Below, piece after piece: positions 77 to 62,306 of a DNA stretch of 64,000 bases. The notes beneath the pieces were generated by a model. It worked only from the letters and a program-made list of their open reading frames with translations. It ran no database searches and had not been told where the DNA came from. Location of the stretch: IMG/VR virus record IMGVR_UViG_3300050821_003315. One strand, written 5' to 3'. The translations under genes were made by a program, and so were the position numbers. The DNA comes from a virus. Each line of letters begins with the position of its first letter. The stretch's first letter is position 1.

Positions 77-102
77 GGAATAAGCAGAGCACGGCACTTG
101 TT
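77..102 (+). promoter_or_regulatory. SigR/SigH-type promoter GGAAT-N18-GTT
   Basis: GGAATA at 77 and GTT at 100; upstream of ORF starting at 131. Confidence 0.75.
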
Positions 103-130
103 GACAAGGGTTAAGGGACGAGGACTACAG

Positions 131-373
131 ATGGGGTCAGTGATGGGCAAGCTAAAGGAACTAGCGGCTTTGAGCGAACTAGGACGAGAGCACGGTTACA
201 CCCACTACGAGTGCACCTACAGCTCCCTGACGGATTCTCACGATGTCGTAGGCGTTACCCCCGAAGGTGACAAGCGACTTGTTATCCGCCTGGAGGATGA
301 GTCACGGGCCAAGGCTGTGGTGAACCTGCTTAACAGTGATATTGGCTGGGACGAGACCCGCGAGGAAATCTAG
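131..373 (+). CDS. hypothetical protein
   Basis: ORF 98..373; ATG at 131 preceded by GAGGA. Confidence 0.65.
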   Translation: MGSVMGKLKELAALSELGREHGYTHYECTYSSLTDSHDVVGVTPEGDKRLVIRLEDESRAKAVVNLLNSDIGWDETREEI

Positions 374-480
374 TGAGTGACGAAGAGCTGGATGCTGTGT
401 TGCAGCGGGTGAATGAGGATAGCGCTTTCTGTGGCACACAGGAAAGTTTCCTTATTCATCTTCTCCGCATGGAGGATTAA

Positions 481-699
481 ATGCCTGAGTACATTCACCA
501 GCGAGCGCAAACAGAACGCGATAAAGAGCAGGTAATGCGCAGGCTAGAGCTAGCGTGGAAAAGGCAGCCCACTATGCGCTTGGGTCAGCTACTGGTAAAT
601 GCACTAGGACCCGACCCTATGCCGGACCTCTTTAACACAGAGGACTTCGCGCTAGTTGATAAGGTCGAAAAATTCGTGAATAGGAATACGAGTGCCTAA
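481..699 (+). CDS. hypothetical phage protein (WxxxPxxRLGQLL type)
   Basis: GGAGG SD; motif WKRQPTMRLGQLLVN. Confidence 0.7.
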   Translation: MPEYIHQRAQTERDKEQVMRRLELAWKRQPTMRLGQLLVNALGPDPMPDLFNTEDFALVDKVEKFVNRNTSA

Positions 700-1144
700 T
701 CACAAGGTAGATAAGTGGGCGCACGATAAGTGGACATTCTCTAATAAGGAGTTCGTTAAGCGACTGGGAATGCCGCCCGGAACGCCTTTCTTTAACGTGG
801 AATTTCGCTCCTACGAACAAAAGATAATCGTTCACGTGAACGTGAAAACACAAAAGAACAAGGATGCCTGGGGCCGCGAGGTAGACCACGTATCTCACGA
901 GACGTGGGAATTCGATAAGCGTGAGGCACTGCAACTACTGGGTTTGCCTGTAAACGCGCCTGTGTTCTTCATAGGTAAGAACCACTATGACGGAAGTGTA
1001 GAAATTACCGCCAGTCATCGTGATTACCCAGAGCCACCTAAGCCAGAACCTGAACCGGAAGGGGAAGAGCCATCAGCAAGCGAGCAGCCAAATTCGTCAT
1101 GGTGGACCTCAATCACTTCCCGCTTTCGCAGTCGGCACCAGTAA
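692..1144 (+). CDS. hypothetical protein with internal duplication
   Basis: HDKWTFSNKEFVKRLGMPPGTPFF resembles HETWEFDKREALQLLGLPVNAPVF. Confidence 0.65.
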   Translation: MPNHKVDKWAHDKWTFSNKEFVKRLGMPPGTPFFNVEFRSYEQKIIVHVNVKTQKNKDAWGREVDHVSHETWEFDKREALQLLGLPVNAPVFFIGKNHYDGSVEITASHRDYPEPPKPEPEPEGEEPSASEQPNSSWWTSITSRFRSRHQ

Positions 1145-1303
1145 CTTGCGGTAATCGCAGCGACCTGCCCAAGAAAGAACGGCGTCATGCATGGGCGTCA
1201 ATGGGCAAGGATGTGCGTAATGCGGGCAGTGCGGGGTTCAAGGAATACCTGATTGGCGCATGCGTTACGTGTGGTCGTGACGAGAAGTTTGACCTGGAGG
1301 TGA

Positions 1304-5813: not shown

Positions 5814-6073
5814 ACATCGACCTAATAGCCAAGGTGATTGTCCGTGATGCTCTGCGAGAAATGGGCGTTACCGGAAGTGCTCAGGTGGCTCCCGTAGCAG
5901 AGCAGATTGTTACTGCCTTGCGTGAGGCTGGCTTGCTGGTTCCTGAGCCTAAGCCTCCTACGGCCTTTGGGCACCCTCCCGGCGCTAGAGGGCTAGCGGA
6001 CGAGGAACCGTGGGTGGACGTGGATACCGGCGGAAAAAGGCTGTCACCAGGGCCGCCTGTACCAGGGCGGTAG
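5810..6073 (+). CDS. hypothetical protein
   Basis: coupled ORF with SD. Confidence 0.6.
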   Translation: MNIDLIAKVIVRDALREMGVTGSAQVAPVAEQIVTALREAGLLVPEPKPPTAFGHPPGARGLADEEPWVDVDTGGKRLSPGPPVPGR

Positions 6074-6098
6074 GAATACTCTTGGCAAGTTCGTTGTT
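6073..6098 (+). promoter_or_regulatory. SigR/SigH-type promoter
   Basis: GGAATA at 6073 and GTT at 6096, intergenic. Confidence 0.75.
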
Positions 6099-7929: not shown

Positions 7930-9003
7930 TGACAGAGCGTGTTGCACTAGAGACCCTAGTCCGCTACCACGGTAGCATCGACTACGCGCACGGTGAGTAT
8001 CGCGTTGCAGGTTACTGTGACCCTCACCAGCGATACGACCTTACTGAGTGTACGGTACAAGAGCACTGGCCCGATGGCGTTGCTTACGAGCTATGGCCGG
8101 ATGGCATGGAGCGTAAATTCGGGTTGCGGGAAAACGCACTGTTTTACGTGCGCCGTAGCTCTTTCACAGTGCTGGAGACCTCATGAGTGACGAACGTCAG
8201 GATGTCGTAGACCGCGAAGCCGTGGGTATCGCCTTGATGGTGGCCAATGACGACGATAGTGCCGTCCGGGACAAGCTAGCCACCTTTATCCGGGAGCCTG
8301 ACCGCGTTACGGAGATGCTTCTGGGGTCTATGACTATCAGCGGCGTGCTTATGCAGATAGTGGCTCGGCTACTGGAAATCTCTAATGATGAAGTGGCCGG
8401 AATGTTGCTGGAAGTCATGTGATTACGAAACCGTGGGCCTGCGCAATTCTAATAGTAAGCCTGTACGCCATCATGGTCACTATGGTGGTTATCACACATA
8501 GCCCCTGGTTCATATTTCTCGCGATACCGATGGCGCGACTGATTGTAGAAGCCAGGCGTCCGTAATCTGTTCACTTGTTGACTAATAGGGTTTTAGGGGA
8601 GGATTGCTCGATGCTCGCAGCTAACGGCTGGCAACACACCCAATCAAGAGTCAGCGCCCCGCCATGGGCACCCTACAAGCGCATCCGTGTGGATAGCGGC
8701 ATGGTTAAGCTGCTTAAAGCACTGTGGAAGCAGGGAGTAGTTACCCGGTTCTCTTGTGAGTGCTGGAACGAGTGGAGCTGTGAGTACAACCCTTACGGGC
8801 ACTTCACTGAAGACGGTAAGGTTCAAGTGGTTTTCACAGGCGAAAACGATAAGGAAAACAGGGACTACGGCGTCCACGCTCTGCGTGAGCTTCTAGGCGT
8901 TGAAGAGCTTTATCCGGTAGGGTGGTGCTTTCATGAGAACTACCTAGAGGATTTGTTTGTCTACTTCCCGAGAGACTTGCTAGTCAAGTTTAATGACAAC
9001 TAG
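7929..9003 (+). CDS. small hypothetical ORFs (7929-8186, 8183-8422, ~8611-9003)
   Basis: ORF track; SD and coupled starts. Confidence 0.55.
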
Positions 9004-9361
9004 TTGCCTAATCGCTTTTTAGGAGGGGAATGCTGACATGAAGAATGTTACGGCTAAGTTCATCAGCGTGATGTGCTCGGGATTTACGACGGACCCGGAC
9101 AACAGTGAGATTGGGCTCGGCACGCTAGAAGCACTGATGAGCCAGCTTCCACCGTACGTATTCGGACAGGTTTATCCGGATGATATGACTGATGTTAAGG
9201 ACCTGTAATGGACGCGTACATCAAGCAGTTCCTAGAGCAAGCAAAGAATCGTTATGAAAGAAAGCTAGCCGATTCCCGATTCGATGAAGTGGCTGAGGCT
9301 TACAACTTCGGTGCTATAGACGCTATTGAAGAAATGCTCGAATACGTCCTTCATAACTACG

Positions 9362-9387
9362 GGAATACTTCCGACTGACAAGTTGTT
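9362..9387 (+). promoter_or_regulatory. SigR/SigH-type promoter
   Basis: GGAATA at 9362 and GTT at 9385; heads the run leading to GH5/GT2. Confidence 0.75.
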
Positions 9388-9941: not shown

Positions 9942-10643
9942 ATGCCCGGACGCATTTCTGGTATGGAGGGTTTCAGTGAGGCGGGGGAGTGGGAGTTCGG
10001 AGCCGGAACAGTGAAGGGCTACAGGGAATGGCAACTTAAGTACTCTCGCAAGTTCCCTCAGGAGCCTCTGGTTCCCGACAACTATCTTATGGGTCACTGG
10101 GGTGGGCAGTGGACGGGTAGTGATTGGCAGGAAGCACGTTGCGACCTCGCTGAGAGAATGGCTCACCTAGAGCAGGACGCTCATAGTAATACCCTTCAGA
10201 CGATGTTGCCTGAATTTCACAGCCCTTCCGATATCCCGGCAGAGATGTGTGGTTGTGGTTTCTGGGCGTTCTGGGAGCCTACACGCAATGTTCACAAGAA
10301 TGGACCGGTGGACTTCAGCTACCCAGCGTTTACCCTTGACGGTTACTGGGCAGAATTTTCACTGCGTGATAAGCCTGCCTGGGTTAAGGCCCACATTCAA
10401 GGGGTAGGCGAGGGGGCCGGCCGCACCATCATAGGTGAAAAGGGATTCCGGTCTCAGAAGATGAAGATGATTGCGCTAGCTGTGGTGACGCCGAATAGGC
10501 ATCCTATATTCGACGCCTCCATGGAAAAGTTCTTCGACAAGACAGCTGAAGAAATGGCTGATGAAATTAAGCAGCTAGTTGAGCAGATTGTTCCGGGGGT
10601 TCCAATCGTTAATGAAGTAGAGAAGCTTAAGGAGTTTATGTAA
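9942..10643 (+). CDS. CGCGxWA family protein, paralog 3
   Basis: GTVKGYREW, GHWGGQW, CGCGFWAFW, GRTIIGEKGFR. Confidence 0.8.
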   Translation: MPGRISGMEGFSEAGEWEFGAGTVKGYREWQLKYSRKFPQEPLVPDNYLMGHWGGQWTGSDWQEARCDLAERMAHLEQDAHSNTLQTMLPEFHSPSDIPAEMCGCGFWAFWEPTRNVHKNGPVDFSYPAFTLDGYWAEFSLRDKPAWVKAHIQGVGEGAGRTIIGEKGFRSQKMKMIALAVVTPNRHPIFDASMEKFFDKTAEEMADEIKQLVEQIVPGVPIVNEVEKLKEFM

Positions 10644-12256: not shown

Positions 12257-12278
12257 CAATAACCCGAAAGGTAATTCA

Positions 12279-13703: not shown

Positions 13704-13719
13704 GGCAGGGAATAGCCGC

Positions 13720-14445: not shown

Positions 14446-14867
14446 AGCTGCGAAACCTCATCTACCCTCTGATTACGATTGGAGCCATTGCATGCTTGGC
14501 CGGTTGTTCCGTTCCTGGTTGGCATCATTCGATTCCTTCTCCGACGACGACCCCTACGGCTACGAAGATTGCGAAGCCACACCCGAGAGTCCACCCTCAG
14601 CCTAAGCCAGTCAAGCCCGGTGCACTGGTGTCTGTGTTCCGCACCGATGGCTTGAATCCTGTCGTCAAGGTGGACGCACAAGGCACTCCGTACGTCGTGG
14701 CCGCCCTGGACGGGACTACATGGACCTGCTACCCCGGCAAGGGCTTCACCCTTAACGCTACGGGCGGCGTCAGGCTAGACGGCTGGACGTGCTCCACTGA
14801 CAGCATCAGCACCGCTGATGTACTAGGGTTTGCTGCTCTCACCGGCGGCAAGATTGTTCGAGGATAA
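14442..14867 (+). CDS. putative lipoprotein
   Basis: lipobox LAGC followed by a P/T-rich linker. Confidence 0.7.
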   Translation: MKLRNLIYPLITIGAIACLAGCSVPGWHHSIPSPTTTPTATKIAKPHPRVHPQPKPVKPGALVSVFRTDGLNPVVKVDAQGTPYVVAALDGTTWTCYPGKGFTLNATGGVRLDGWTCSTDSISTADVLGFAALTGGKIVRG

Positions 14868-14876
14868 GGAGTTAGC

Positions 14877-15764: not shown

Positions 15765-15790
15765 GGAATACTCATGACCGGGACAGCGTT
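15765..15790 (+). promoter_or_regulatory. SigR/SigH-type promoter, leaderless, overlapped by hairpin 15772-15803
   Basis: GGAATA at 15765, GTT at 15788, ATG at 15800. Confidence 0.8.
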
Positions 15791-15799
15791 GTTCCGGTC

Positions 15800-16006
15800 A
15801 TGAAGTTCATCCCCGCACTTGACGGTAGTTTCATCGGCGTAGACCACGTTGCTCGCCTGTTTTTCAGGGAGAACGTCACCAGAGGTACGTGGGAAGTGTG
15901 CGCTTCTGTTGTGGGTCCGCAACAGCCTTTCGTCCTTCACCAGGCTGCGTCATCAGAGTCAGCGCGCACCCTCATCAGGCATCTCATAGAGCAAATCGGG
16001 GGATAG
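15800..16006 (+). CDS. hypothetical protein (leaderless)
   Basis: ATG 9 nt after the promoter GTT. Confidence 0.65.
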   Translation: MKFIPALDGSFIGVDHVARLFFRENVTRGTWEVCASVVGPQQPFVLHQAASSESARTLIRHLIEQIGG

Positions 16007-17305: not shown

Positions 17306-17313
17306 GAGAAGCG

Positions 17314-18102: not shown

Positions 18103-18128
18103 GGAATACTCACCCTTGGCAACTTGTT
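18103..18128 (+). promoter_or_regulatory. SigR/SigH-type promoter
   Basis: GGAATA at 18103 and GTT at 18126. Confidence 0.75.
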
Positions 18129-18155
18129 ACAACATACGACATGACGGAGGTAAAG

Positions 18156-21087: not shown

Positions 21088-22071
21088 GTGACTGAACGCA
21101 TGTTCCGTGCGCCTGTTATTTCCAGCCTGTGGGACTCGTGCACGAGGCACCTGCAAACTATTAACGTGCGAACAGCAGAAGTCTCCTACGATTACGCGGC
21201 TGACCTGTCCAACAATATCTGGGGCGGCCCAACGGTGTTCATTCATTCCAGTAGCAAGCGTTGGAACCGGGCTGGCGGCCTGGAACATGAGCTGTGGCAG
21301 GTATCGGTCATGGGATTCATCGTAGAAGAGGCTCTGGAAGTAATGCGAGCTGTTGAAGACATGCTAAGTAGTGAGGGTCCTGAAAAGTACGCAAACTATT
21401 ACGGGCATAACTGGCGTTTCCGTGACGGAGAACTAGTACCGGACGAGCTAGCTCGTGTCGGAACGTAAGGCTGACCGCTACCTGCGCCGTAGCGGCACGG
21501 AGAAGCCCTGTCCATGGCCTAGCGCCACGATATACCCCGGTACGCTCAAGGGCGTCACGCAAGCTCTCAAGGACGCACAGATGCTAGCGGTGAACGCCGG
21601 AATAAGCCAGAACGTCTTCGCGTTGTACGGTGACGAGAGGGTCCTGGTCAAGCGCTTTGGGCCTGAGGGGGAAGTAGTGCTAGAAGGGGATTCGCAATGA
21701 CGCTATTCAGTAAGGGCGATGAGGTCATCGTCCGGGAACTGCGCACCAAGATTGACATGCCGGGTTCTACCGGAGCGTGGGTCACCATTCCTGACCCGGA
21801 AGGTTCACCTCGCCAGGCTTTCCTGCCTTATAGCCTAATGGATAAAGTCCGGCCTGAGGTCAAGGTAGGCGATGTGTGGCGCAGCAATCAGGGAACTGAC
21901 TGGTACGTGCGAAAGCTGTGGGCGGCTGCTGACGGTATTGTCATTGAGTCCTTCACGTCTTGTTCAGTTAGCTACAGCTCCATACTACGGGCGGGTTCAG
22001 GACTAGCACGCCCTATAGATAAGTTCTTTGAAGAGCATAAGCCGAAGCTAATGTACCGTACTTCCAGCTAA
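21088..22071 (+). CDS. three hypothetical ORFs (21088-21468, 21455-21700, 21697-22071)
   Basis: coupled ORFs. Confidence 0.55.
21599..21624 (+). promoter_or_regulatory. SigR/SigH-type promoter (intragenic)
   Basis: GGAATA at 21599 and GTT at 21622; upstream of 21697 and the ncRNA candidate. Confidence 0.55.
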
Positions 22072-22086
22072 CAAGCTGGGCTAAGA

Positions 22087-26696: not shown

Positions 26697-26840
26697 TCAT
26701 GACAGGATTACCTTACCTGTAAGGTCTGTAGCTACCGCGGTCAACGGAGTGCCGTCCTTGAACACGACTTGAGAATCGCTCTCGTCAAGACCGCCCAAGC
26801 CGAGTCCGGTGAGCTGGGTGAGTAGCTGCTGCACAGTCAT
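26697..26840 (-). CDS. small hypothetical protein (leaderless)
   Basis: ATG 9 nt after the minus-strand GTT. Confidence 0.6.
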   Translation of the reverse strand: MTVQQLLTQLTGLGLGGLDESDSQVVFKDGTPLTAVATDLTGKVILS

Positions 26841-26849
26841 GACAACGAT

Positions 26850-26875
26850 AACACTCTCGCGGCTTACTGTATTCC
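26850..26875 (-). promoter_or_regulatory. SigR/SigH-type promoter, leaderless
   Basis: minus-strand GGAATA-N17-GTT; ATG at 26840. Confidence 0.8.
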
Positions 26876-27549: not shown

Positions 27550-27575
27550 GGAATATCGTACCATGGCTCAGCGTT
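27550..27575 (+). promoter_or_regulatory. SigR/SigH-type promoter, leaderless, overlapping a divergent TACGAT promoter
   Basis: GGAATA at 27550, GTT at 27573, ATG at 27585. Confidence 0.8.
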
Positions 27576-27584: not shown

Positions 27585-27746
27585 ATGAAGACTGAGTACG
27601 AGCGGCGGCGGGACACTATTGTCTGGGAGCTGTGCAAGAAGTGGCAGAAAACTCAGCACAAGGGAATACCTATTGCACTGATGGACGTGCTAGGTGACGC
27701 TTACGAAATAGGCTACAAAGACGGCGAAAGCGATAAGCATGCCTAA
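27585..27746 (+). CDS. 53-aa hypothetical protein (leaderless)
   Basis: MKTEYERRRD...; overlaps start of the RF-like gene. Confidence 0.6.
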   Translation: MKTEYERRRDTIVWELCKKWQKTQHKGIPIALMDVLGDAYEIGYKDGESDKHA

Positions 27747-35693: not shown

Positions 35694-35719
35694 AACGTTG
35701 TCAGGCTACGGCGTATTCC
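35694..35719 (-). promoter_or_regulatory. SigR/SigH-type promoter
   Basis: minus-strand GGAATAcgccgtagcctgacaacGTT. Confidence 0.8.
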
Positions 35720-50400: not shown

Positions 50401-50426
50401 GGAATACTTACGTTGCCGACAACGTT
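50401..50426 (+). promoter_or_regulatory. SigR/SigH-type promoter, leaderless
   Basis: GGAATA at 50401, GTT at 50424, GTG at 50436. Confidence 0.8.
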
Positions 50427-50435: not shown

Positions 50436-51369
50436 GTGATGACGACTGAGTGGCGAGACGCCAAGGACGGGACTACGCCTCCAGTGCGCAGGCTGTGCTG
50501 GGTGTGGGACTACACCTACGACCGTGTTGTACTTGCGGTGAACGACGGTGAGCACTGGTTGCACTGGAACACCGAGAGGGTACTGCCAAGCGTCACTCAC
50601 TGGGCACTCTTGCACATCCCGTCTAAGCCAAGGAACGCGTGAACATGGAACCTACAGCCGAGCAGCTAGCTAAGCTACCTAAGTGGGCACAACGTTACAT
50701 CCGTACGCAGCAGATGTACATCGAAAATCTTAACGCTCACGTAGATGAGCTATCGCAAGGACCTGACGACTCTGACACCTTCGTTGAACATTACAGCACG
50801 TACCCTACGCGTCCGCTTGGTAAGAGTCCAATTATCAAGTTCAAGCTAGGTGAAGATGAGCACGAAAGAGCAGTTCACCTTCGCGTACATGAGCGTAATG
50901 ACGGCAGTAAGTACTTGAACGTGATGGCTCTTAGCTCCTGGGTCAGCATTCGTCCTAGGTCAGGAAACACCTTTGACATTTACATGGAGGAAAGGTGACT
51001 ATACCGCAGCCGCCTGAGCGCCCTGAGCGCGTAGCAGTAGAGCCGGATAGTAACAGTCGACTGGCGACCTTGCTCACTATCTATCACGCACAAAAAGCTG
51101 AGGCCGCAGCAGCAGAAATTGCCGCTGACGAAACCAAGGCCGCCATCATGGCAGAACTGGCTCGCTGGCCACAGCAGCCAGGCAAGGCGTTCGACATTCC
51201 GGCACACCCGAACGGTGCGTGGGGAGCTTACGCTCTTACCTTCAGCAACCCTAGGCGCTTCCAGCAGAAGTCTTTCGCAGAAGACCATCCTGACTTGTAC
51301 GAAGAGTATAAGCGACCGGGTAACGGTCAGTGGTCATTGTCTCCTGTTAGCAAGCACCCGAAGTCGTAA
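50436..51369 (+). CDS. three hypothetical ORFs (50436-50642, 50639-50998, 50995-51369)
   Basis: coupled ORFs upstream of the exonuclease. Confidence 0.6.
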
Positions 51370-51384: not shown

Positions 51385-52230
51385 ATGCCGACCACCAATC
51401 CGTCGTCTTTTTTCTCGGACGCTACGCCTGCCGTTCTTAACGGCAACTCCATGTGGGCGCAATCATACTGGCGTGAGCTGAAAAGCGTTGCGATTAACTA
51501 CGCCAACAGGCTTCCGCGCAACGTGCAGCGTCATCTCGGTCCTAGCGAGCTAGGACACGAGTGTGACAGGCTCCTCATCGCGAAGATGTCAGGCCACAAG
51601 CTGCATTCAGACAATCACGTATCTGACCCATGGGCGTCCATGGTCGGCACCGCTATCCATGCGTTCCTTGAGCAAGCTTTTGACTGGGACAACAAGGAAC
51701 ACCTAGTTGAGCGTGCTTACAAGGAGCGGTGGAAGACGGAGACGAAGGTCTGTCCGGACCCTAATGCACTACAGTCTCATCCGGGCACGGCCGACCTTTA
51801 CGATAGCGATACATTCTCGCTGGTAGACCACAAGTGCCAAGGTGAAGGACCGCGAGATAAACTTCGCAGGCAAGGTCCTCCACAGCACTACTACATTCAG
51901 ATGTTGCTTTATGCAATTGGCTACATGTATCTCGGTTACCGCGTTGACCGTGTAGTACTAGCTAGCTGGCCGCGCACCAAGTCTTCGCTAGACGAGGGTT
52001 ATGTGTGGGAGCATATCATTACCGCTGAGGACTTCGAGCTAGTAAAGAACGTCCTGGCAAAGACTGAAGTTCGTGAAGCTGTAGCCGTGGAGGTCAACGA
52101 GGGCAGGATGTCAATCTGGGACGTGCCTATGACTCCTTCGTATGAGGATTGCTTCTACTGTCCCTTGTTCCGTCCGCAGGCTGCTACTGACCCAACAGTA
52201 ACGGGGTGTCCCGGAACGGCAGGTAAGTAA
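51385..52230 (+). CDS. Cas4/RecB-like PD-(D/E)xK exonuclease
   Basis: LGPSELGHECDR, GTAIH, GTADLYD, VDHK, QMLLYA, CFYCP..C. Confidence 0.85.
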   Translation: MPTTNPSSFFSDATPAVLNGNSMWAQSYWRELKSVAINYANRLPRNVQRHLGPSELGHECDRLLIAKMSGHKLHSDNHVSDPWASMVGTAIHAFLEQAFDWDNKEHLVERAYKERWKTETKVCPDPNALQSHPGTADLYDSDTFSLVDHKCQGEGPRDKLRRQGPPQHYYIQMLLYAIGYMYLGYRVDRVVLASWPRTKSSLDEGYVWEHIITAEDFELVKNVLAKTEVREAVAVEVNEGRMSIWDVPMTPSYEDCFYCPLFRPQAATDPTVTGCPGTAGK

Positions 52231-53104: not shown

Positions 53105-53318
53105 CATACTTTACCTCGACAACGTGAGACAAGCACTCCGGACCTCGTGGTAGAGTTATGGAGTACCCAAGAGGGAGACCCCTTGAGGACAACTTAAGAG
53201 GCGCGTACGAAAGCCAGTCAGCCAGGTCGCAGTAAGGCAGTTAAGCCGACGCAGTAAGGCATGAGGCAGTAAGACCGCCATACGCAGTTCACTCTAAAGA
53301 CAAGGATTAGTTCATCTA
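53105..53318 (+). promoter_or_regulatory. long structured, repeat-containing leader of the SSB gene
   Basis: hairpins ACTCC..GGAGT and CAAGAGGG..CCCCTTG, then GCAGT(A/T) five times. Confidence 0.55.
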
Positions 53319-54173
53319 ATGAACCAGCCCCAGTACCAGCCGCAGCAGCCCCAGTACTACGCTCCCCAGGCACCTGCCCCCGCACCCCAGGCTCAATTCC
53401 AGCAGCCGCAGTTCCAGCCTCAGTACGCGCCTCAGCCCCAGTTCGCACAGCCTGCACAGCAGGCAGCTCCCGAGCCTGTTCTCGCTCGCGGTACCCTAGA
53501 GGACTTCTGGGACCAGCCGAGCGTAACAGGTGGTGGAGCGGGCGTTACCAAGTACTTCAACGGTAAGGTCCAGGGTTCATGGCTTGACATGACTGTCACC
53601 CGTGACCTGCTTCACAGCGACACGCGTCAGCAGACGGACATCAACGGTGTCCCGCAGGCGTACAAGGATGGTCGCCCGAAGTTCGTCCTCATCATTCCCG
53701 TTACAGTGACGGGTTCCTCTGATGGTACGCACGGTGCTCTCTTCACTGAAGGTGCTGGCACCATCTGGGTGAAGGGCGCGCTTAAGGACGAGTTCGCTCG
53801 TGCCATGGCGGCTGCCGGAATTCGGGAGCTGACTGGTGGTACGCGCATCATCATGGCCAGCGCTGGTGAAAAGGCCAGCAACCGTCCCGGATTCAGTGCC
53901 ACTAAGCTTTACCAGGTGACGCTGTACCCTTCGCAGGGCGGTGCTCCTGCTCAGGTTCAGGTAGAGGTTCCGGTTGCAGCCCCGCAGGCTGCTCCGCTCC
54001 CTACCCCTGTCGCGGCTGCGCCGCTGCCGAGTCCTGTTCCTGGTGCTCCGGTGGCCCCGCAGACTTTTGCACCTGCCCCGCCTGCACCTGCGATTAGCCC
54101 GGTGGACCTGTCCGGCGTCAATCTGACTGAGGCGCAGCAGGCAATGCTGGCCAAGCTCAACGGCGGTCAGTAA
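53319..54173 (+). CDS. probable single-stranded DNA-binding protein with Q/P-rich termini
   Basis: QQTDINGVPQAYKDGRPKFVL..IWVKG core; sits between exonuclease and helicase. Confidence 0.7.
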   Translation: MNQPQYQPQQPQYYAPQAPAPAPQAQFQQPQFQPQYAPQPQFAQPAQQAAPEPVLARGTLEDFWDQPSVTGGGAGVTKYFNGKVQGSWLDMTVTRDLLHSDTRQQTDINGVPQAYKDGRPKFVLIIPVTVTGSSDGTHGALFTEGAGTIWVKGALKDEFARAMAAAGIRELTGGTRIIMASAGEKASNRPGFSATKLYQVTLYPSQGGAPAQVQVEVPVAAPQAAPLPTPVAAAPLPSPVPGAPVAPQTFAPAPPAPAISPVDLSGVNLTEAQQAMLAKLNGGQ

Positions 54174-54400
54174 TTGAACCGGAACTACGAACCTGCGTGT
54201 GCCGCAGGTGTAGTAAACGCGCTGCTAGATGTGAACGCCCCGGAGGGTGATGTTCTTCACGGTCTTATCTGTGATGACCTTCCGCGTACTGAGCATCTTG
54301 CAATGCAGAATCCGGATGAATGCGCCATGCTCCTGTCCTTTCCTAACGGGTCGGCGTGGGCCGTGACTGTTCAGCGGAACAGTCTGTAGTAACAAGTAAA

Positions 54401-54467
54401 GGTGAGGGATTCCGGGCGTGCCAGGACCGGATGTAAAAGACAGTGGCTCAATACCGTGTCCCTCACC
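54401..54467 (+). ncRNA. tRNA-like structured element lacking a canonical anticodon arm
   Basis: 9-bp GGTGAGGGA/TCCCTCACC stem; TCCGG/CCGGA arm; T-arm-like GG-CTCAATA-CC. Confidence 0.4.
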
Positions 54468-54476
54468 CCCTTAGGG

Positions 54477-54502
54477 GGAATATGAAGGTCTCTGACGGCG
54501 TT
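54477..54502 (+). promoter_or_regulatory. SigR/SigH-type promoter match overlapping a small TM ORF start
   Basis: GGAATA at 54477 and GTT at 54500. Confidence 0.45.
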
Positions 54503-54830
54503 ATAGCTCACATCATAGTCTGGTCCACGGTGGCTCTCCTGATTCTAGGGGCGGGTCTAGCAGGCTGGACGGAGGATTGGTGGTGGCTCGTGCTAGGAAC
54601 TCCTTACGCCATCATCTGCTTCTGGGCGTACACATGGGGGCGTAATATTCAATGAGAACTGACATGCCTGAAGGTTCAACTGGTATCTACGTGCTTACGG
54701 TAGATGTAACTTCATACGGCGCTTCTGCTCTAGAAATAGAGGAGGATATTTCGCACAAGCTAAGGGACTTGTCTGTGAACGCTTGTGTAGAAGATGTATC
54801 TATCACCTTCGCGGACGATTAAGGAACGCA

Positions 54831-56792
54831 GTGGACCCGCGTTATGCTCCCGGAGTTGTTCACGGACGACTTGACGGGGACACTATAAGGCTTAGCGTTG
54901 AGGGCCTTGACTGGCAGATGGGCGAGATAGTAACTGCGTTCAAGCAGCTTACGGCCCTTCCCCAGAAGACTCACGACGACAGCGGAGAGCTGACTCTTCC
55001 CTGCACGTGGGCGATGGTAAGCCAGCTAGCGAATGCACTGCCTGCACGCGGCCATGTATGGCAGCCTGATGAAGCACTTAGCCAGTGGATATTCAACGAA
55101 GTACTACGGCGTGGCACTACTGAGGGCGAACTTAAGGCTTCGTTTGAAGGTGACCGTGTGCCCATGCCGCATCAGGAAGCAGGTGCTTTTGTAGGTGCGA
55201 TGAACCGCAGGTTCTTTTTTGCTGACGATATGGGCACCGGAAAGAGCTGCACTGCACTTTTGGCGCTAGCGGAGATGCGTGAGCGCGGCATGGAACCGTT
55301 TCCTGCTTTCGTAGTGTGCCCAGCTTCTGTTGTGGACCCGTGGCTGGAAGAGATAAAAGAGTGTTTTCCTAGCTGGTCGTATACAGCATACCGTACTCAG
55401 CCTTATATCAAAGGAGTACAGCTCGCTATACCTGACAGGCGTAAGCTGAGTACTCGCTATAATATTTACGTCATGTCTTATGACGTATTCCGGGCTGATA
55501 TGACTATTCCGCACTTGGCGTGGTGCGAGTGCGACCCTCCTAAGTCCGTGCGCTGGACTAGGAATCGCGACCTTAAGTTCGTTGCGGGTTTTCCTGACAG
55601 GTGCAAGCATTGCGGTAGTGCGTACCTGCCTGAAGAAGAAGCAGACAAGAGCAGCAAGCAACTTCCGCCTCTTTTGATGCACCTGACTCCTAAGAGCATC
55701 ATCATTGATGAGGCGCATTCGCTGTGCAACACCACGACCAAGCAGTCTGTAGCGGCTGGGCGCATAGCAAAGGTGGTGGACAACGCCATCCTGATGTCAG
55801 GAACTCCCATTACACGGGATATCCGTGGCTTCTGGCGGGGACTGACAATCATCGATACTCGCTCGTTCCCCAACCAGGACAGATACAAGGAACGCTATGC
55901 GGACTTCGTGGCAACTGATTACCAGGACATCGTAAACGGCATCAGTCCTCACACCAAAGAAGAGTTCTATACGTTGATGCAGGGCACGATGCGGCGCGTG
56001 TCCAAGGCTGACGTTCTCACAGACCTTCCGCCTAAGGCATACTCAACGCGAGTAGTAGATATTCCGCCTGCATGGCGTGCTGCCTACGATGAGATGGCCA
56101 AGGACATGATTGCGCACTTGCCGGATTCTGACGAGCCACTGCCTGTCATGTCCACGCTCGCGCAAATGCAGCGGTTGTCTCAGCTAGCCAGTGCTGCGTG
56201 TGATGTCACTATTACCGAAGAGCTGGATGACCGTCCTAAGAGCGAAACTTTCGGCCAGATGATTCCTAAAGTCCACGTGGAGATGAAGGAACCGTCCTGG
56301 AAAGTGGACGTGCTCATGGAAATTCTTGATGATAGCCAAGGGTCTCCTATAGTTACGTTCAGTCCTCACCGCCAGCTCATGGAACTGGCAGGGAAGCGTG
56401 CTGAGCGCGAGGGTTATCGCGTTGCCTACATCGTAGGCGGACAGACCCAGAAGCAGCGCACGGCTTCTCGCCAGGGCTTCCAAGACGGTCAGTTTGACCT
56501 GATGTGCGTCACTACGCAGGCCGGGGGCGTGGGTATTACCCTGACCAAGAGCCACACTGCGGTGTTCCTTGAGCGGCCATGGGCTTACTGGCAAGCGGCG
56601 CAGTCAGAAGACCGGCTGCACCGTAGAGGTCAGTCCGAACCCGTCAATATAATTGATGTCGTAGCCCGTAATACCATCGAATCCAAGGTCCGTATGGCCT
56701 TGAAGGACAAGGCTCAGAATCTGTCTGAGCTTATCCAAGACCCGCGCATTGTGAGAGAACTTTTGGGAGGGGAACCACTACATGTCAACTAA
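54831..56792 (+). CDS. SNF2-family (DEAH-box) helicase
   Basis: DDMGTGKS, VVCPAS, IIDEAH, MSGTP, AGGVGITLT, QSEDRLHRRGQ; Zn-ribbon insertion. Confidence 0.92.
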   Translation: MDPRYAPGVVHGRLDGDTIRLSVEGLDWQMGEIVTAFKQLTALPQKTHDDSGELTLPCTWAMVSQLANALPARGHVWQPDEALSQWIFNEVLRRGTTEGELKASFEGDRVPMPHQEAGAFVGAMNRRFFFADDMGTGKSCTALLALAEMRERGMEPFPAFVVCPASVVDPWLEEIKECFPSWSYTAYRTQPYIKGVQLAIPDRRKLSTRYNIYVMSYDVFRADMTIPHLAWCECDPPKSVRWTRNRDLKFVAGFPDRCKHCGSAYLPEEEADKSSKQLPPLLMHLTPKSIIIDEAHSLCNTTTKQSVAAGRIAKVVDNAILMSGTPITRDIRGFWRGLTIIDTRSFPNQDRYKERYADFVATDYQDIVNGISPHTKEEFYTLMQGTMRRVSKADVLTDLPPKAYSTRVVDIPPAWRAAYDEMAKDMIAHLPDSDEPLPVMSTLAQMQRLSQLASAACDVTITEELDDRPKSETFGQMIPKVHVEMKEPSWKVDVLMEILDDSQGSPIVTFSPHRQLMELAGKRAEREGYRVAYIVGGQTQKQRTASRQGFQDGQFDLMCVTTQAGGVGITLTKSHTAVFLERPWAYWQAAQSEDRLHRRGQSEPVNIIDVVARNTIESKVRMALKDKAQNLSELIQDPRIVRELLGGEPLHVN

Positions 56793-57576
56793 TGGGTGTG
56801 GGGTTGAAGGTTGTGAACGCACCCCGGATGGTGGGCACAAATTGTGCTCTATGCATAGGTCCCGGTTGAAGCGTTCTGGCTCAGTAGGTGAAGTTGAAGC
56901 TCGTGTAGAGCCTAAAGAGCCTGTGCCTTCTTGTGCTTCTAAAGAAGAGCTTAAAGGTACACCTAAACCTGAGGCTCGCCCATGCAAAACTGACGGGTGC
57001 ACTAACAAAGAGTACATAGATATAACTAAAATACAGGCTACAAATAGGTGGGTGTGGGGACGCCGTGGATTCTGTATTAAGTGTCGTAACGCTAAAAATC
57101 CGGTGAGTGGTAGGCATAAGAAGGAGGGACGCGTGTATCGTAACTACGGGATATGGGTACCTGAACTTTTTATACTCAAAAGCGGATGTGCCCAAACTCC
57201 TGACGGTGACCCTATCGGGTATGTTAAGGACACAGTTCGTACTAAGGTAGGGATAGGCTGTAAGCCTGAATACCTCTGGCAGGCCAAAGGCGGTTTCAGT
57301 GACGAAAGGTTCATGCAAGCCGTGCTCAGTAAGTGGGCCAAAACACCACGGCCGTTTATAAGTTCTCGTCCTACTGTCCTTTCGGAGTGGTTTGATTTTA
57401 GTTGGCTTAAGAATGTCACTGAAGACCCTAAAGGACAGGTCACACAACTGCTTATTACAATTGCCGATTTTTCCCGCGCAATAGAACGTGAACCGTGGGT
57501 TTATTTCCCCACTCTCTTTACAGAAAACGGCTTTAAACACCAGCTTCCTTACTATAGAGGGTCTGATGGCAGCTAG
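56782..57576 (+). CDS. putative homing endonuclease (Cys-rich N-terminus; GIY-YIG/T5orf172-like C-terminus)
   Basis: CGVEGC..LCSMH, CKTDGC..CIKC; KVGIG..SEWF; AT-richer. Confidence 0.5.
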   Translation: MSTNGCGVEGCERTPDGGHKLCSMHRSRLKRSGSVGEVEARVEPKEPVPSCASKEELKGTPKPEARPCKTDGCTNKEYIDITKIQATNRWVWGRRGFCIKCRNAKNPVSGRHKKEGRVYRNYGIWVPELFILKSGCAQTPDGDPIGYVKDTVRTKVGIGCKPEYLWQAKGGFSDERFMQAVLSKWAKTPRPFISSRPTVLSEWFDFSWLKNVTEDPKGQVTQLLITIADFSRAIEREPWVYFPTLFTENGFKHQLPYYRGSDGS

Positions 57577-58021
57577 ATATCTCGGCATCGATGTAGGACC
57601 GTCTACCGGTCTGGTCTGGGGCCACAAGGGTGACAACGATAAGCCTGCGATAGACGGCATCGTACAATGTCACGCTCACACTGTCGAGTTCCAGGTACGC
57701 AGCCTGATGCGCCTGTTTCCCAAGGATGAATGGTTCATTCAGGGTGAGAAGTTCGTAGCAGGTCGTGGTGCGGGCGGTAAAGGCAAGGACGCAGAAGTAG
57801 CCAGGTTCGTGCTGAACATGGTTGAGGCTTACTTCGCGCACACGCCAGGGTGTACGTGGCACGCGCGGCCAGCCGCTATGATGAAGCCCTGGCTCACTAC
57901 CAACCGCCTTAAGGCTGTGCAATTCCCACTCGGCCCCAAGTTCAAGGACGCCAGGGACGCCCTCGGGCACATGCTGTTCACTGCCGTTCGCGACGGCGGT
58001 TGCAAGGACCCACTCTACTAG
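57566..58021 (+). CDS. RuvC-like Holliday junction resolvase
   Basis: YLGIDVGPSTG, GEKF, KDARDA. Confidence 0.75.
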   Translation: MAARYLGIDVGPSTGLVWGHKGDNDKPAIDGIVQCHAHTVEFQVRSLMRLFPKDEWFIQGEKFVAGRGAGGKGKDAEVARFVLNMVEAYFAHTPGCTWHARPAAMMKPWLTTNRLKAVQFPLGPKFKDARDALGHMLFTAVRDGGCKDPLY

Positions 58022-58029
58022 GAGTAAGA

Positions 58030-58818
58030 ATGCCGCGTTTCGTAGAACCTGAAGTTTTCCTCATTGCTCAGCCTGAGGTGGACTACGATGAGGTTGCTCG
58101 CTACCTGGAGCTTGTGGGTGGTGGAGACTGGATGGACACTCTTGATGAGTTTGGGCCCCACGCTGAAGACCTAGTAGAGTTCGGTGGTCGTCTTTGCTAC
58201 CGGTCCTTCGAGCCGGGGCTTAACCCTAACGTCACCAAGGTACGCACTGACAAGGTTGATTACTTCAAGAACATCCTCAAGAGCGGCCATGGCAGTGTGG
58301 TCGAGCACGCTAACTTCTCATTCGCCTTGCATAACGTAAGCCGCGTTTTCACTCACGAGCTTGTCCGGCATCGCGCGGGCTGTGCTATCAGCCAGGAGTC
58401 AATGCGGTTCGTACGGCTTACGGACATACCTTTCTGGCTGCCACAATGGGCTAAGGATGACCCTGCGCTGTATGAGGAATCTCTTCAGGTTCTGCACATG
58501 CTGGAAAAGCACCAGAAATGGATGGCTGAGCACTTCAAGCTGGACGACGATGGTGTGCCCTTCCACGAGAAAAAGGCTAAGACCTCGTTCATGCGGCGTT
58601 TCGCGCCAGATGGGGTAGCCACTTCTCTTCTCTGGACGGCGAATATCCGCACGCTACGCCACGTTATTGAAGTTCGCACAGCGGCAGGAGCTGAAGAGGA
58701 AATTCGCCTGGTATTCGACACTATTGCGGAGGCCATGAAGACAGAAGTTCCTAAGCTAATGCAAGACTTTACCCGTGAGGAAAACGGAGAATGGATTCCG
58801 GCTCACAGGAAGGTGTAG
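58030..58818 (+). CDS. thyX: flavin-dependent thymidylate synthase
   Basis: GRLCYRS, GHGSVVEH, SRVFTHELVRHR..SQESMRF, NIRTLRH, AEEEIR. Confidence 0.97.
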   Translation: MPRFVEPEVFLIAQPEVDYDEVARYLELVGGGDWMDTLDEFGPHAEDLVEFGGRLCYRSFEPGLNPNVTKVRTDKVDYFKNILKSGHGSVVEHANFSFALHNVSRVFTHELVRHRAGCAISQESMRFVRLTDIPFWLPQWAKDDPALYEESLQVLHMLEKHQKWMAEHFKLDDDGVPFHEKKAKTSFMRRFAPDGVATSLLWTANIRTLRHVIEVRTAAGAEEEIRLVFDTIAEAMKTEVPKLMQDFTREENGEWIPAHRKV

Positions 58819-58830
58819 AATAATGACACT

Positions 58831-59181
58831 ATGGCAAGAGCAACCCCCAGCGCATTTACCTTCAGGCTATCCTGCGGGTGCCTCGCAATCCTTCCCGGAG
58901 TGCAGGCAAATAAGGAAGGTTTCGTAACTTCCAAGAAAAAGGCCCAGATACTGTGCTTGAAGTGCAGGACCGGCGTCACTATAATCAAGCGGTATCCACC
59001 ACCTTATGCCTCATGTGCAGTTGAATCGTGGAAGGATGACCTTAAAGGCGTGATGCGCCGAGTAAGGTGCTGCCTTGCGGACGGCCACGATGATGACCAT
59101 GAAGATTCGATAATCGGCCTTACGTTTCCGTCTCCCGGCAAGCTCATTGCCCGTGGCGACGGGAATACAAATCGAGCATAA
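58831..59181 (+). CDS. Cys-rich hypothetical protein
   Basis: LSCGC..CLKC..RCC..GHDDDH. Confidence 0.55.
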   Translation: MARATPSAFTFRLSCGCLAILPGVQANKEGFVTSKKKAQILCLKCRTGVTIIKRYPPPYASCAVESWKDDLKGVMRRVRCCLADGHDDDHEDSIIGLTFPSPGKLIARGDGNTNRA

Positions 59182-59187
59182 GGAGTT
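59162..59187 (+). promoter_or_regulatory. SigR/SigH-type promoter, leaderless
   Basis: GGAATA at 59162, GTT at 59185, GTG at 59197. Confidence 0.8.
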
Positions 59188-59196
59188 GAACAAGAC

Positions 59197-60846
59197 GTGT
59201 GGATAGCAGCGTGCACCTGCGGCACGGGAATAACGGCAGAGTCGGAAGCTGAGGCCGCTAGCCTCGCTGAGACTCACTTGCTGCGTGCTGCCGTGCCAGG
59301 GCCGGGTGAAACGTGGCAGCATGCCGTGAGCCTAGGTGAAGCCACTAATGCTTGTAAGCTAACACCTAACTGGGGCACTCACGCTCCCGCTATTGCCGCA
59401 CCAGGCGAGGCAGTAAGTCGTCCTACGAGTAACGGCAAGCGCACCTTGTCTCCTGCCGACATCATGCGCCAGCTCAAGCGCCAGGAATTGCAGTACGCCG
59501 CAGAGGATGAGGAATTCGAGGAGCCTCAGGTTCCGGCTCGAAGCAATCCTTACACTGTAGACCCTGAGCCTGGTGTCGATGCTGGCTTCCACCACGAGGG
59601 TGCGTACAGGGAGAAGCCAGAGGACTTCAGTGGCTGGGGAGGGCCAGGAGGGCCGCCTGAAGACGATGACGACGAGGACTACTCCTATCTCAATATCGAC
59701 CCTGTAGACGCCCCTACACGTCTCGATGAGCTTCCTGAGGGTATCATCGTTAATGGTCAGGTGGGTACAGGACCTAAGCTACCCTTGGTGGAAGACGGTC
59801 CTGACTATCAGATAGACGAGGATGCACCGTTGAAGCCGCATTGGCCGGGAGACAAGCGACCTGAGGAGGACTAGTGGAGGCGTATGAAGGTTACCTGTCG
59901 TGCGCGAATTGCGCGAAGTCTCTGGAGGAGGGCTACCATCCGATAAAGATGGCAGGAGAGCGCATACAGTTTGTATGCACGCCTGAGTGCGGCAGTAAAT
60001 GGATGCGGGCTGTAGGCGAAGTATTCAAGTGCCAGCAGTGTGACGCTGAATGCCCTATCACTGAGCATCCTTGCATTGAGTGGGAAGAGCAAGGCACACA
60101 TCACTTCTGCAAAGACGATTGTGTCTATGACTACATGATAGAGAATAACGTTACCTTCGCTCACCCTGAGGCGCAGCCAGACGTGGATGACTTATGGCTA
60201 CCACCATAGAGATTGAGGAGCTTACAGGCTTTGACCTTGATAACGCTCCTCCTTGTGAGTTTTACGATGTAGCCCACGGTAAGCCGTGCGGTGAGCCGTC
60301 TGTAGTGAGGATGAGAGTTAAGTGCTCTTGTGGCGAAGCAGGCGTCATATTCTTGTGCCAGAAATGCCGTGAGATGCTGGAGCAAGGAGGCGCACAGTGC
60401 CTCATGTGCTTTGGAAGCGACCTTACGTGGGGGGAATCTTGAGTCCTTGGCCGTATTTCATGAAGGGCCGTACGCCTTTTCGGGCACTAAAGCCATTGCT
60501 TGGAGACTCGCAGAAGCTTGACCCGGACAATGCTCTGGGCGACCGTCAGGTGTGCCCTGAAGATGAAGCTACCTTGGTATCTAGTAAGATGTTCGGCGTA
60601 GACGATAACTACCACATGCCTGTACTGGACATTGACTACAAAGCTACCCTAGTCGAGTCTTCAACACCGGGGCACTACCACTTGTACCTCAACCACTGGG
60701 TTAAGTGGGAAGACTATAAGAAGCTGCTTAAGGCAATGGAACGTTGCGGGTTGCTGCAACCCGGATTTGTCAATAACAGCATTAAGCGGGGAGCTTCTTT
60801 CGCCAGGCTGCCAGGAGTCAAGAAAGGCGAGGAACATGCCTGCTAA
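59197..60846 (+). CDS. four hypothetical ORFs (59197-59874 acidic; 59874-60209 Cys-rich; 60194-60442 Zn finger, paralog of 7672; ~60439-60846)
   Basis: coupled ORFs. Confidence 0.6.
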
Positions 60847-61147
60847 GCCGTTCACGGGTGGCGTCAGGATTGACCCGGAGAAGCTTAAGGTATGCCGCGA
60901 GATAGCTGGAATGACCCAGACTGAGCTTGCTAGCCGAACGGGCATCTCTGTTGAGAGTATCAGCTCATACGAAAGAGGCATCCGAAAGCCATCCGGTGCA
61001 TACTTCAGGCGGCTTTTCATAGCACTAGGAGTAGGTCCGGAGGACTTGCTGACGAACAAGGCAGCTAAGTTGGCTATTAAGATGCTGGCGGAACGCCGTA
61101 AGCTTAATGCGCCAGACCTTGAGGAGCTGTGGGAAGACGATGAATAG
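60836..61147 (+). CDS. XRE-family HTH regulator
   Basis: LKVCREIAGMTQTELASRTGISVESISSYERGIRKP. Confidence 0.9.
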   Translation: MPAKPFTGGVRIDPEKLKVCREIAGMTQTELASRTGISVESISSYERGIRKPSGAYFRRLFIALGVGPEDLLTNKAAKLAIKMLAERRKLNAPDLEELWEDDE

Positions 61148-61278
61148 GCCGGAAGCCCTGGAAAGTCTTTACCGATTCGTGTGGGAAGAGATGGATACAC
61201 TAGAATCATCTGTTCCTGGCTACGCTTATATCGCAGACAAGGACATGGATACGCTGGAGCGCCTGTGCTTGGCGATAG

Positions 61279-62274
61279 ATGAGGCGCACTATGAGTAACG
61301 AGCTTGATGAGCTTACTTTTCTGCTAAATGCCAGCGTCGATGAAGTGCGCAACACCTCCTTTAGCCGATGGCAAGGACTAACGGATAATAGCTCGGCCAT
61401 GAAGGGCTTCACAGGCGAGGCAGAGCTGGCCGTAGGGAGTGTTCAAGGGTACCGGTGGTGGAAGATGTACCCGATGAAACAAGACGCGCTCATAGGCGCT
61501 TACGGAGGCCGCTGGGACCCTGGTGACGCCTTTTACGAGGGTGAATGCCGCAGGGCACGGTTGTACGGTAAGGTACCCGAGCATGCGGCTCCTGAGCCTA
61601 GCTGCGGGTGTGGTTTCTGGGCGTTCTGGAAGCCGGCTGATGCCAGCGTAATACTGGACAAGACGGCTATCACAATCCAGGGCGTAGTAGAGGGCTTCGG
61701 TACTGTACTTATTGGCGATAAGGGTTTTCGCTGCGGTAAGGTGCGCCTTAAGGGCCTAGCAATAGATAAAGACCACCTGCGCCGGACTATGGAAGAAGAG
61801 CGTAAGCGAAACTTCGATGGCTATTTTACGCAGACGTATAAGAATCAGCTAACCGCAGGCCCTTGGCGCTCTCCCACCTTTAAGACTGAAGGGGCAGTTA
61901 ACACACACGCTCAGATTACGGGGCGAAAGATAGAAAGTGCTGTTGACGCCAGTATCCCTGAAGAAATACTTGACTGTGCGGTCGCTGAAATTGAGGGAAC
62001 TCTAGAAGAGCTTTACCCTTCGGTTAAAGTGTTTTGCTCTATGAGTACGATGCGCACTTATTTTGGTCACGACAAGAATTATGGCTATGCGTCAAGTAGG
62101 TGCCCAGACGTACTAGCTATGGGCCAGGACTGGCTCCAGCGAGTTCTGTTGAAGCTCACCACGCTTAGCTGGGACCTAGGTGAAGCTCTCTGGGAGACTA
62201 ACCAAGGCTGGGCAGCAGCGCGAGAGGTCAGGCGCATGGGGGACCTCGTACGCGAGATTATAGATGAGCTGTAA
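61279..62274 (+). CDS. CGCGxWA family protein, paralog 4
   Basis: GSVQGYRWW, GAYGGRW, CGCGFWAFW, GTVLIGDKGFR. Confidence 0.8.
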   Translation: MRRTMSNELDELTFLLNASVDEVRNTSFSRWQGLTDNSSAMKGFTGEAELAVGSVQGYRWWKMYPMKQDALIGAYGGRWDPGDAFYEGECRRARLYGKVPEHAAPEPSCGCGFWAFWKPADASVILDKTAITIQGVVEGFGTVLIGDKGFRCGKVRLKGLAIDKDHLRRTMEEERKRNFDGYFTQTYKNQLTAGPWRSPTFKTEGAVNTHAQITGRKIESAVDASIPEEILDCAVAEIEGTLEELYPSVKVFCSMSTMRTYFGHDKNYGYASSRCPDVLAMGQDWLQRVLLKLTTLSWDLGEALWETNQGWAAAREVRRMGDLVREIIDEL

Positions 62275-62280
62275 CCCGCA

Positions 62281-62306
62281 GGAATATTGAGACTTGTAGA
62301 AAGGTT
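62281..62306 (+). promoter_or_regulatory. SigR/SigH-type promoter, leaderless
   Basis: GGAATA at 62281, GTT at 62304, ATG at 62316. Confidence 0.8.

Follow-up and report, generated by a model that had tools for sequence, protein, structure and literature searches.

The 64,000-bp stretch of DNA analysed here (the window), part of the genome of an uncultured soil phage, carries 13 exact copies of a bipartite motif, GGAATA-N17-GTT, all at the coordinates and on the strands originally listed for them. We are confident that these sites are promoters of the type read by extracytoplasmic function (ECF) sigma factors. Their sequence equals that of the optimal promoter of SigH (in Mycobacterium and Corynebacterium) and SigR (in Streptomyces), the actinobacterial sigma factors for thiol-oxidative and heat stress, and a SigH-family sigma factor of the host is, with rather less assurance, the factor that we favour as their reader. 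The sites represent a known kind of promoter in a new setting, a phage genome. Phages are known to use the housekeeping sigma factor of their host or to bring their own; a lytic-type genome with a host stress ECF sigma as its dominant promoter class would be wired differently.

Number, spacing and consensus of the sites

The phage is represented by a single virus record of 163,509 bp with a CheckV completeness of 100% (G000); the window corresponds to its positions 67509-131508, read on the reverse strand. We scanned both strands for the exact 26-nt pattern and took the chance level from 100 dinucleotide-preserving shuffles. These held a mean of 0.32 sites and a maximum of 3, none of the 100 reaching the 13 of the window, so the enrichment claimed from an estimated chance level of 0.5 is upheld. 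The full-genome scan that had been proposed as a check raised the count to 25 sites in 163.5 kb. The spacer between hexamer and trimer is rigidly 17 bp: the same hexamer and GTT occur only 5, 2 and 3 times genome-wide at N14, N15 and N16, and 2, 0 and 4 times at N18, N19 and N20, against 25 times at N17.

The motif is equally strict in sequence. When the sixth base of the hexamer is left free (GGAATN-N17-GTT), just two further sites appear beside the 25 with GGAATA, and GGAAC.-N17-GTT is at background, with 3 occurrences in the genome compared with 2-7 at other spacers. Variants with one mismatch show no excess (32 at N17 against 30-36 at other spacers), nor is any of them followed by a start codon at 9 nt. 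In an unbiased search of the whole genome through all dyads of a 5-mer, N14-20 and a 4-mer, GAATA-N17-GTTG ranked first, with 16 occurrences observed and 1.0 expected; the next-ranked dyads were mostly the same motif or its complement, together with words from the T-arm of tRNAs. Alignment of the 25 sites gives gGGAATA-N16-(C/T)GTT(G), with a spacer that is not conserved from site to site. Unlike the GTT itself, which the search pattern prescribes, its flanking bases were free to vary; they are a pyrimidine before it in 22 of the 25 sites and a G after it in 16.

The proposal that GGAAT/GTT is the SigR/SigH-type consensus is borne out, in that motif, spacing and discriminating bases equal those of the experimentally defined promoter (PMC4803200, PMC10012870, PMC3489674, PMC6411747). 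The M. tuberculosis SigH consensus is GGAAYR-N17-GTT, with a 17-nt spacer in 19 of 25 mapped promoters (PMC4803200), and all 25 phage hexamers conform to GGAAYR. In C. glutamicum, the promoters trxB1 and mshC, which are read by SigH only, have the form GGAATA-N17-GTT; a T at -31 marks such SigH-only promoters, SigE requires C at this position, and promoters with C are read by SigH plus SigE (PMC10012870). Every phage site has T at -31, which argues against SigE. The extended consensuses are (G/T)GGAATA-N16-19-(C/T)GTTGAA in C. glutamicum, (G/T)GGAA(C/T)A-N16-(C/G)GTT in M. tuberculosis and GGGAAT(G/C)-N16-(C/G)GTTG for SigR of S. coelicolor (PMC3489674), and the phage -10 element, (C/T)GTT followed by G, matches (C/T)GTTGAA and (C/G)GTTG. 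For the M. tuberculosis sigmaH holoenzyme, a 17-bp spacer, as found in the phage, works best, and hardly any position of the -35 and -10 elements can be substituted without loss of activity (PMC6411747). This stringency accounts for the all-or-none pattern of the phage sites, in which one-mismatch forms are no commoner than background.

Comparison with relatives shows which bases have been retained. IMG/VR contains one close relative of 181 kb (G001), whose DNA polymerase is 93% identical, and a more distant fragment of 39 kb and 64% GC (G002), 58% identical. G001 has 26 exact sites, against 1+1 for a reversed-pattern control. We aligned sites with their flanks, making no use of the motif, and obtained 20 orthologous pairs between G000 and G001; GGAAT and GTT are 100% conserved in these and the sixth base 95%, compared with 70-75% for the 5' half of the spacer and 75-95% for the flanks. 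All window sites but one, 12 of 13, are matched by an exact orthologue in G001. The exception is the 62281 cassette, which that genome lacks; it carries private cassettes, which likewise combine this promoter with a start codon 9 nt past the GTT. Two N17 sites are present in G002, with ATG 9 and 8 nt past the GTT. Single-protein scans for further relatives returned G001 alone, and among cultured phages we found no DNA matches and no closer relationship than 32% identity for the capsid protein and 28% for the DNA polymerase.

Placement of the sites and the genes behind them

The sites are oriented with their downstream genes, as had been stated for the window: across the genome, all 21 sites with a called gene no more than 300 nt downstream lie on that gene's strand. 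The remaining four of the 25 face tRNA genes (two sites), an uncalled 181-codon open reading frame (ORF) and the end of the contig. The two tRNA-facing promoters, outside the window at G000:C1:8743-8768 and 8983-9008, lie 44 nt upstream of tRNA-Trp and 11 nt upstream of tRNA-Ala in a cluster of 35 tRNAs, and the tRNAs therefore appear to share the same transcriptional class. Their proposed location at gene junctions is also seen genome-wide. In 11 of the 25 sites, the stop codon of an upstream same-strand open frame of at least 60 codons falls at the site, counted from 10 nt before the first G of the hexamer to the end of the 26 nt; often this stop is a TAG fused to GGAATA.

The distance to start codons is fixed as well. 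All six start codons said to lie exactly 9 nt past a GTT in the window (15800, 26840, 27585, 50436, 59197 and 62316) are present, and they open ORFs of 68, 47, 53, 68, 225 and 168 codons. Genome-wide, ATG or GTG occupies bases 10-12 past the GTT at 12 of the 25 sites (binomial P = 5.6e-12), with no other offset enriched, and at 11 of the 25 it is the first codon of an ORF at least 40 codons long. The ninth base past the GTT is a pyrimidine in 19 sites and the tenth a purine in 20. Over those of the ORFs that have an equal-length orthologue in G001, the two genomes differ at 50 first, 28 second and 165 third codon positions. This concentration at the third position indicates that the frames starting at these codons are under purifying selection, including those of only 47-68 codons. 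Given a start codon 9 nt past the GTT and a pyrimidine/purine step at the expected -1/+1 positions, the mRNAs from 11 of the 25 sites are probably leaderless. Leaderless mRNAs are common in actinobacteria.

The putative SigH/SigR-type promoters of the window and the predicted leaderless genes behind them are as follows, with protein lengths in amino acids (aa), the predicted transcription start as +1, and differences from G001 at codon positions 1, 2 and 3.

77..102 (+): promoter, predicted +1 at 112; ATG at 131, leader about 19 nt; an upstream ORF stops within the site; orthologous exact site in G001 despite an altered spacer
6073..6098 (+): promoter, predicted +1 at 6108; GGAGG before the ATG at 6120, leader about 12 nt; the upstream TAG overlaps the first G of the hexamer; orthologous site in G001 with a diverged spacer
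9362..9387 (+): promoter, predicted +1 at 9397; GTG at 9418 opens a 171-aa ORF; 5 spacer changes in G001, hexamer and GTT intact
15765..15790 (+): promoter of a leaderless gene, identical in G001; hexamer abutted by the stop of an upstream 298-codon open frame (a called gene of 295 aa)
15800..16006 (+): predicted leaderless gene, 68 aa, ATG exactly 9 nt past the GTT; differences 5, 2, 13, pointing to purifying selection in frame; no Pfam match
18103..18128 (+): promoter, predicted +1 at 18138; ATG at 18141, 3-nt leader; upstream TAG abuts the hexamer; in G001 with 3 spacer changes
21599..21624 (+): promoter in the 3' end of the upstream ORF; ATG at 21697, leader about 63 nt; kept in G001
26850..26875 (-): promoter of a leaderless gene; kept in G001 with spacer changes
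26697..26840 (-): predicted leaderless gene, 47 aa, ATG at 26840, 9 nt past the GTT; differences 3, 0, 11; heads a leftward block that includes a NamH-like gene (24231-25676)
27550..27575 (+): promoter of a leaderless gene; all 26 nt identical in G001
27585..27746 (+): predicted leaderless gene, 53 aa; differences 7, 6, 19
35694..35719 (-): promoter, predicted +1 at 35684; leader of 112-124 nt to the gene at 35156-35572, with a class II ribonucleotide reductase (32560-34578) further downstream; exact site in G001 with the same 3' half of the spacer
50401..50426 (+): promoter of a leaderless gene, kept in G001 with 2 spacer changes; heads a rightward block with an exonuclease gene (51385-52230)
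50436..50642 (+): predicted leaderless gene, 68 aa, GTG start; differences 3, 2, 14
54477..54502 (+): promoter, predicted +1 at 54512; upstream of a SNF2-family helicase gene (54783-56792); kept in G001
59162..59187 (+): promoter of a leaderless gene; kept in G001
59197..59874 (+): predicted leaderless gene, 225 aa, GTG start; the G001 orthologue (226 aa) likewise starts 9 nt past the GTT; first in a block with small Cys-rich proteins and an XRE-type helix-turn-helix (HTH) protein (60836-61147)
62281..62306 (+): promoter of a leaderless gene; the stop of an upstream 331-aa ORF lies 6 nt ahead of the hexamer
62316..62822 (+): predicted leaderless gene, 168 aa, N-terminus resembling a signal peptide; no Pfam or PHROG match

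Beyond these genes, sites elsewhere in the genome front RtcB, dCMP deaminase, the tRNA cluster and a nucleotide kinase block, and one fronts the first gene of a rightward block leading to the terminase. Those in the window front small-gene cassettes, a block with the NamH-like gene at its end, the ribonucleotide reductase and exonuclease blocks, the SNF2 helicase and the XRE block. Many genes of this putative regulon are small and have no assigned function. Sites are absent from genome positions 145.4-161.1 kb, the upstream part of a 126-gene block whose small genes carry Shine-Dalgarno sequences, and from the region upstream of the primase-polymerase block. The 50-kb structural block has none past its first promoter, bar one opposite-strand site (genome 62186-62211). 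The site-free regions imply that other promoters must exist. For a second promoter class, a dyad search, upstream k-mer enrichment and a sigma-70 consensus scan gave nothing above shuffles, and a k-mer search of the site-free intergenic regions, whose extraction looked imperfect, likewise gave no second motif. An order in which the housekeeping sigma serves early transcription and the SigH-type class follows is plausible.

Several side observations concern individual loci. The uncalled 181-codon ORF lies outside the window in the tail-gene block (G000:C1:61634-62211 (-)), with a SigH-type promoter of its own and a GTG start 9 nt past the GTT. A conserved operator inside the promoters was considered and rejected, inverted repeats of at least 7 bp being present in 3 of 25 sites, which is not above the background of 6.5%. 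The 15765 promoter has a perfect 10-bp inverted repeat, TCATGACCGG ... CCGGTCATGA, with a 12-nt loop (window 15772-15803). The repeat begins in the spacer, spans the -10 element and reaches the leaderless start codon; G001 has it almost unaltered, and it might serve as an operator. An Rfam search of the window matched no family. At 10643-13703 (+), the window encodes a GH5 cellulase with a ricin-type lectin domain (537 aa) followed by a family 2 glycosyltransferase (474 aa), a pairing that is unusual for the non-structural region of a phage. Over its 64,000 bases, the window differs from the same strand of the genome record only at position 37744, where it has A and the record has G.

The factor that reads the sites

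We suggest that GGAATA would act as the -35 hexamer and (C/T)GTT(G) as the -10 element, separated by the 17-bp spacer, and that transcription would most likely start at the purine 10 nt past the GTT. In nearly half of the sites this purine would also be the first base of ATG or GTG, leaving neither a leader nor a Shine-Dalgarno sequence, and the leaderless mRNA would presumably be translated straight from its 5' end. The host RNA polymerase with a host SigH-family sigma would most likely read the sites, because their sequence equals an optimal SigH/SigR promoter and the phage has no recognisable sigma factor. Both the identity of the sigma and the start site are inferred from the DNA sequence.

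The original prediction had named two possible readers, the stress sigma of the host and an ECF sigma encoded by the phage beyond the window. No sigma of the second kind was found in the complete record. The same is true of G001, which makes the first, use of a host sigma, the better reading. A six-frame hidden Markov model (HMM) search of the whole genome with Sigma70_r2 had no match. A weak match of Sigma70_r4, r4_2 and TIGR02937 at 60890-60988 was rejected as a phage ECF sigma, since it belongs to an XRE-family protein with an HTH_3 domain (60836-61147 (+), 103 aa, 6.6e-14), a regulator that sits in the block putatively driven by the 59162 promoter. PHROG scans of about 60 non-structural proteins yielded no sigma family; they named dCMP deaminase, nucleotide kinase, thymidylate synthase, exonuclease, Ku, MazG, RtcB and methyltransferase, among others. 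No T7-type RNA polymerase was found in the phage, but the controls for this search stayed silent, so that it is uninformative by itself. A search for WhiB genes found none. As a possible phage anti-sigma factor, we considered the protein at 63333-63998 (-), which matches zf-HC2 with E = 0.0012 in the six-frame search and 0.02 on the protein; it has no cysteines and an atypical topology and is for this reason not convincing. It has an apparent N-terminal hydrophobic (membrane-like) segment, and its sequence HHIDVLLEAYMDGTISDAERQELKKFL weakly resembles the first helix of zinc anti-sigma domains.

Among the alternatives, the one that survives best, though we consider it unlikely, is a factor encoded by the phage itself, either a very divergent sigma or an early activator that appropriates a sigma, with SigH-like specificity acquired by chance or by copying. 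That all 25 sites are perfect, with no excess of one-mismatch forms, is a pattern also of phage-specific promoter classes, and the site-free stretch at 145-161 kb, with its many small Shine-Dalgarno genes, could be an early class supplying the factor. The many phage proteins without assigned function are our reason for keeping a small share of probability for this explanation. The HMM searches speak against it, in that Sigma70_r2, r4, r4_2 and the general ECF model gave the XRE HTH protein alone, while the ECF model found just the orthologue of that protein in G001 and nothing in Mycobacterium phage Bxz1, a cultured phage with a comparable array of sites (see below). Nor would a sigma that has diverged beyond detection be expected to keep T at -31, a purine at -30 and N17; such a factor would hardly retain the exact specificity of the host's, and use of the host SigH family is the better reading for this reason too. 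A mechanism like that of MotA/AsiA would require a sigmaA-type TANNNT at -10, which the sites lack.

Slightly less probable again is recognition by another host ECF sigma of overlapping specificity, for example a paralogue of SigH or a factor resembling SigE or SigM. The GGAA/GTT core is common to the ECF sigmas of actinobacteria, which read one another's promoters, as do SigH and SigE (PMC10012870) and, at trxB1, SigM and SigH (PMC5483222). Against this stand the T at -31 of all sites, where SigE needs C, the background frequency of GGAAC-N17-GTT, and the finding that in vitro trxB1 (GGAATA ... GTTGGT) is read by SigH alone (PMC5483222). It is highly improbable that the sites are not promoters but oriented binding sites for a protein, stoperator-like or with a role in replication, packaging or the nucleoid: their distribution, about 25 oriented copies in short intergenic gaps, resembles that of stoperators in L5-type phages, but the conserved bases are bipartite around a non-conserved and evolving 17-bp spacer, no contiguous repressor-type word of about 13 bp is conserved, and start codons follow at a constant distance. 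Some sites, moreover, stand in front of tRNA genes, and the motif coincides exactly with a known sigma consensus.

Several observations weigh against a host SigH-family sigma as the reader, or against details of the scheme. The phage uses just the perfect form of the promoter, whereas host SigH regulons tolerate variation; promoters served by a factor of the phage itself are also typically this uniform. A very divergent sigma, or a factor that redirects one, could be concealed among the many phage proteins of 130-260 aa to which no function is assigned. The anti-sigma RshA/RsrA normally keeps SigH inactive, and its oxidation or deletion raises the activity of SigH/SigR-dependent promoters; no means by which the phage might free SigH was identified. 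The motif is not enriched in 25 more distant metagenomic relatives recognised by their DNA polymerase (36-58% identity, 57-71% GC, 315 kb of contigs), so the trait is lineage-specific and not a property of the wider group. Finally, the scaffold of the sigmaH open complex places the GTT at -11 to -9 (PMC6411747), which would put +1 one base ahead of the start codon and not on it. The pyrimidine/purine pattern of the sites favours +1 at the first base of the start codon; either way, the predicted leader is 0-1 nt long. For SigH/SigR-dependent promoters in general, a start some 8-9 nt past the GTT is expected.

The identity of the host was approached through the phage proteins. The DNA polymerase matches almost exclusively actinophages, at 27-28% identity, and the nearest capsid matches include Pontimonas and Streptomyces phages. 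The nearest Atlas clusters of the NamH-like gene are mostly Actinomycetota, and a search of bacterial genomes with this gene, made to find the host, gave no match. The invariant A at the sixth position is a hint in the promoters themselves, as it would fit the mycobacterial/corynebacterial consensus better than that of Streptomyces.

Implications and comparison with known systems

A full-text literature search found no report of SigH/SigR-type promoters in phages. If the sites are read by the host factor, phage gene expression would be tied to redox or heat stress of the host, and phage factors that act on the SigH/RshA switch would be predicted, a pathway that is important for stress tolerance and drug responses in mycobacteria. 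The promoters, very uniform, presumably strong and with leaderless starts built in, could also serve as a compact set of expression parts for actinobacteria.

The arrangement has a parallel in a cultured phage. Mycobacterium phage Bxz1 (NC_004687), a cluster C myovirus, carries 20 GGAAT-N18-GTT sites, 18 of them forward and 2 reverse, where the control has 0; they are located at 11737-23673, 53205-59602 and 91509-103237; five ordinary actinophages (31-49 kb) have one such site in total. Most Bxz1 sites have the form GGAATGA-N16-YGTT and are GGAATGAATCCCCATACCGCTGCGTT-like, so that part of the spacer is conserved too. Twelve sites fall in the examined region at 11-24.5 kb, most of them intergenic among the small genes gp32-gp69; their leaders are about 42 nt long. 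Bxz1 shares with the soil phage an array of GGAAT-N18-GTT sites, a large genome and the lack of an ECF sigma detectable with the general ECF model. The two phages are unrelated, the capsid of the soil phage having no cultured relative above 32% identity, and their sites differ in that those of Bxz1 have G as the sixth base, a partly conserved spacer and leaders of about 42 nt where the soil phage would have none. We tentatively propose, at somewhat less than even odds, that unrelated large actinophages (the soil phage with its relative, and Bxz1-type phages) have independently wired a large share of their genes to the SigH/SigR factor of their hosts, and that their development requires or provokes the thiol-oxidative and heat-stress response of the host. 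Such wiring would call for some early phage function, as yet undiscovered, by which SigH is released from RshA/RsrA. Since cultured Bxz1 has a comparable array, the hypothesis is directly testable in Mycobacterium smegmatis.

Compared with the SigH/SigR regulons of bacteria, the phage sites share all features of the promoter, namely GGAATA within GGAAYR, (C/T)GTT(G) at -10, the 17-bp spacer, T at -31 and what would be stringent recognition. They differ in the genes that follow, which are tRNAs, nucleotide-metabolism genes and unassigned genes and not those for thioredoxin, mycothiol or chaperones, and in that all copies are perfect. In addition, nearly half of the phage sites are placed for leaderless mRNAs, whereas most SigH transcripts of M. 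tuberculosis have leaders (18 of 25 newly mapped; PMC4803200).

Promoter classes read by phage-encoded sigma factors are known from T4 (gp55, late), SPO1 (gp28 and gp33/34) and phiEco32 (gp36). The soil phage resembles these in repeating one uniform, information-rich promoter many times over, as expected of a transcriptional class, but it has no detectable sigma of its own, and its motif is the consensus of a host stress sigma. The stoperators of cluster A phages (the L5 gp71 sites) are similar in being present in an actinophage in two to three dozen oriented copies within short intergenic spaces. They are contiguous 13-bp repressor sites, in contrast to the two short boxes, the 17-bp spacer of variable sequence and the fixed distance to a start codon that characterise the sites described here.

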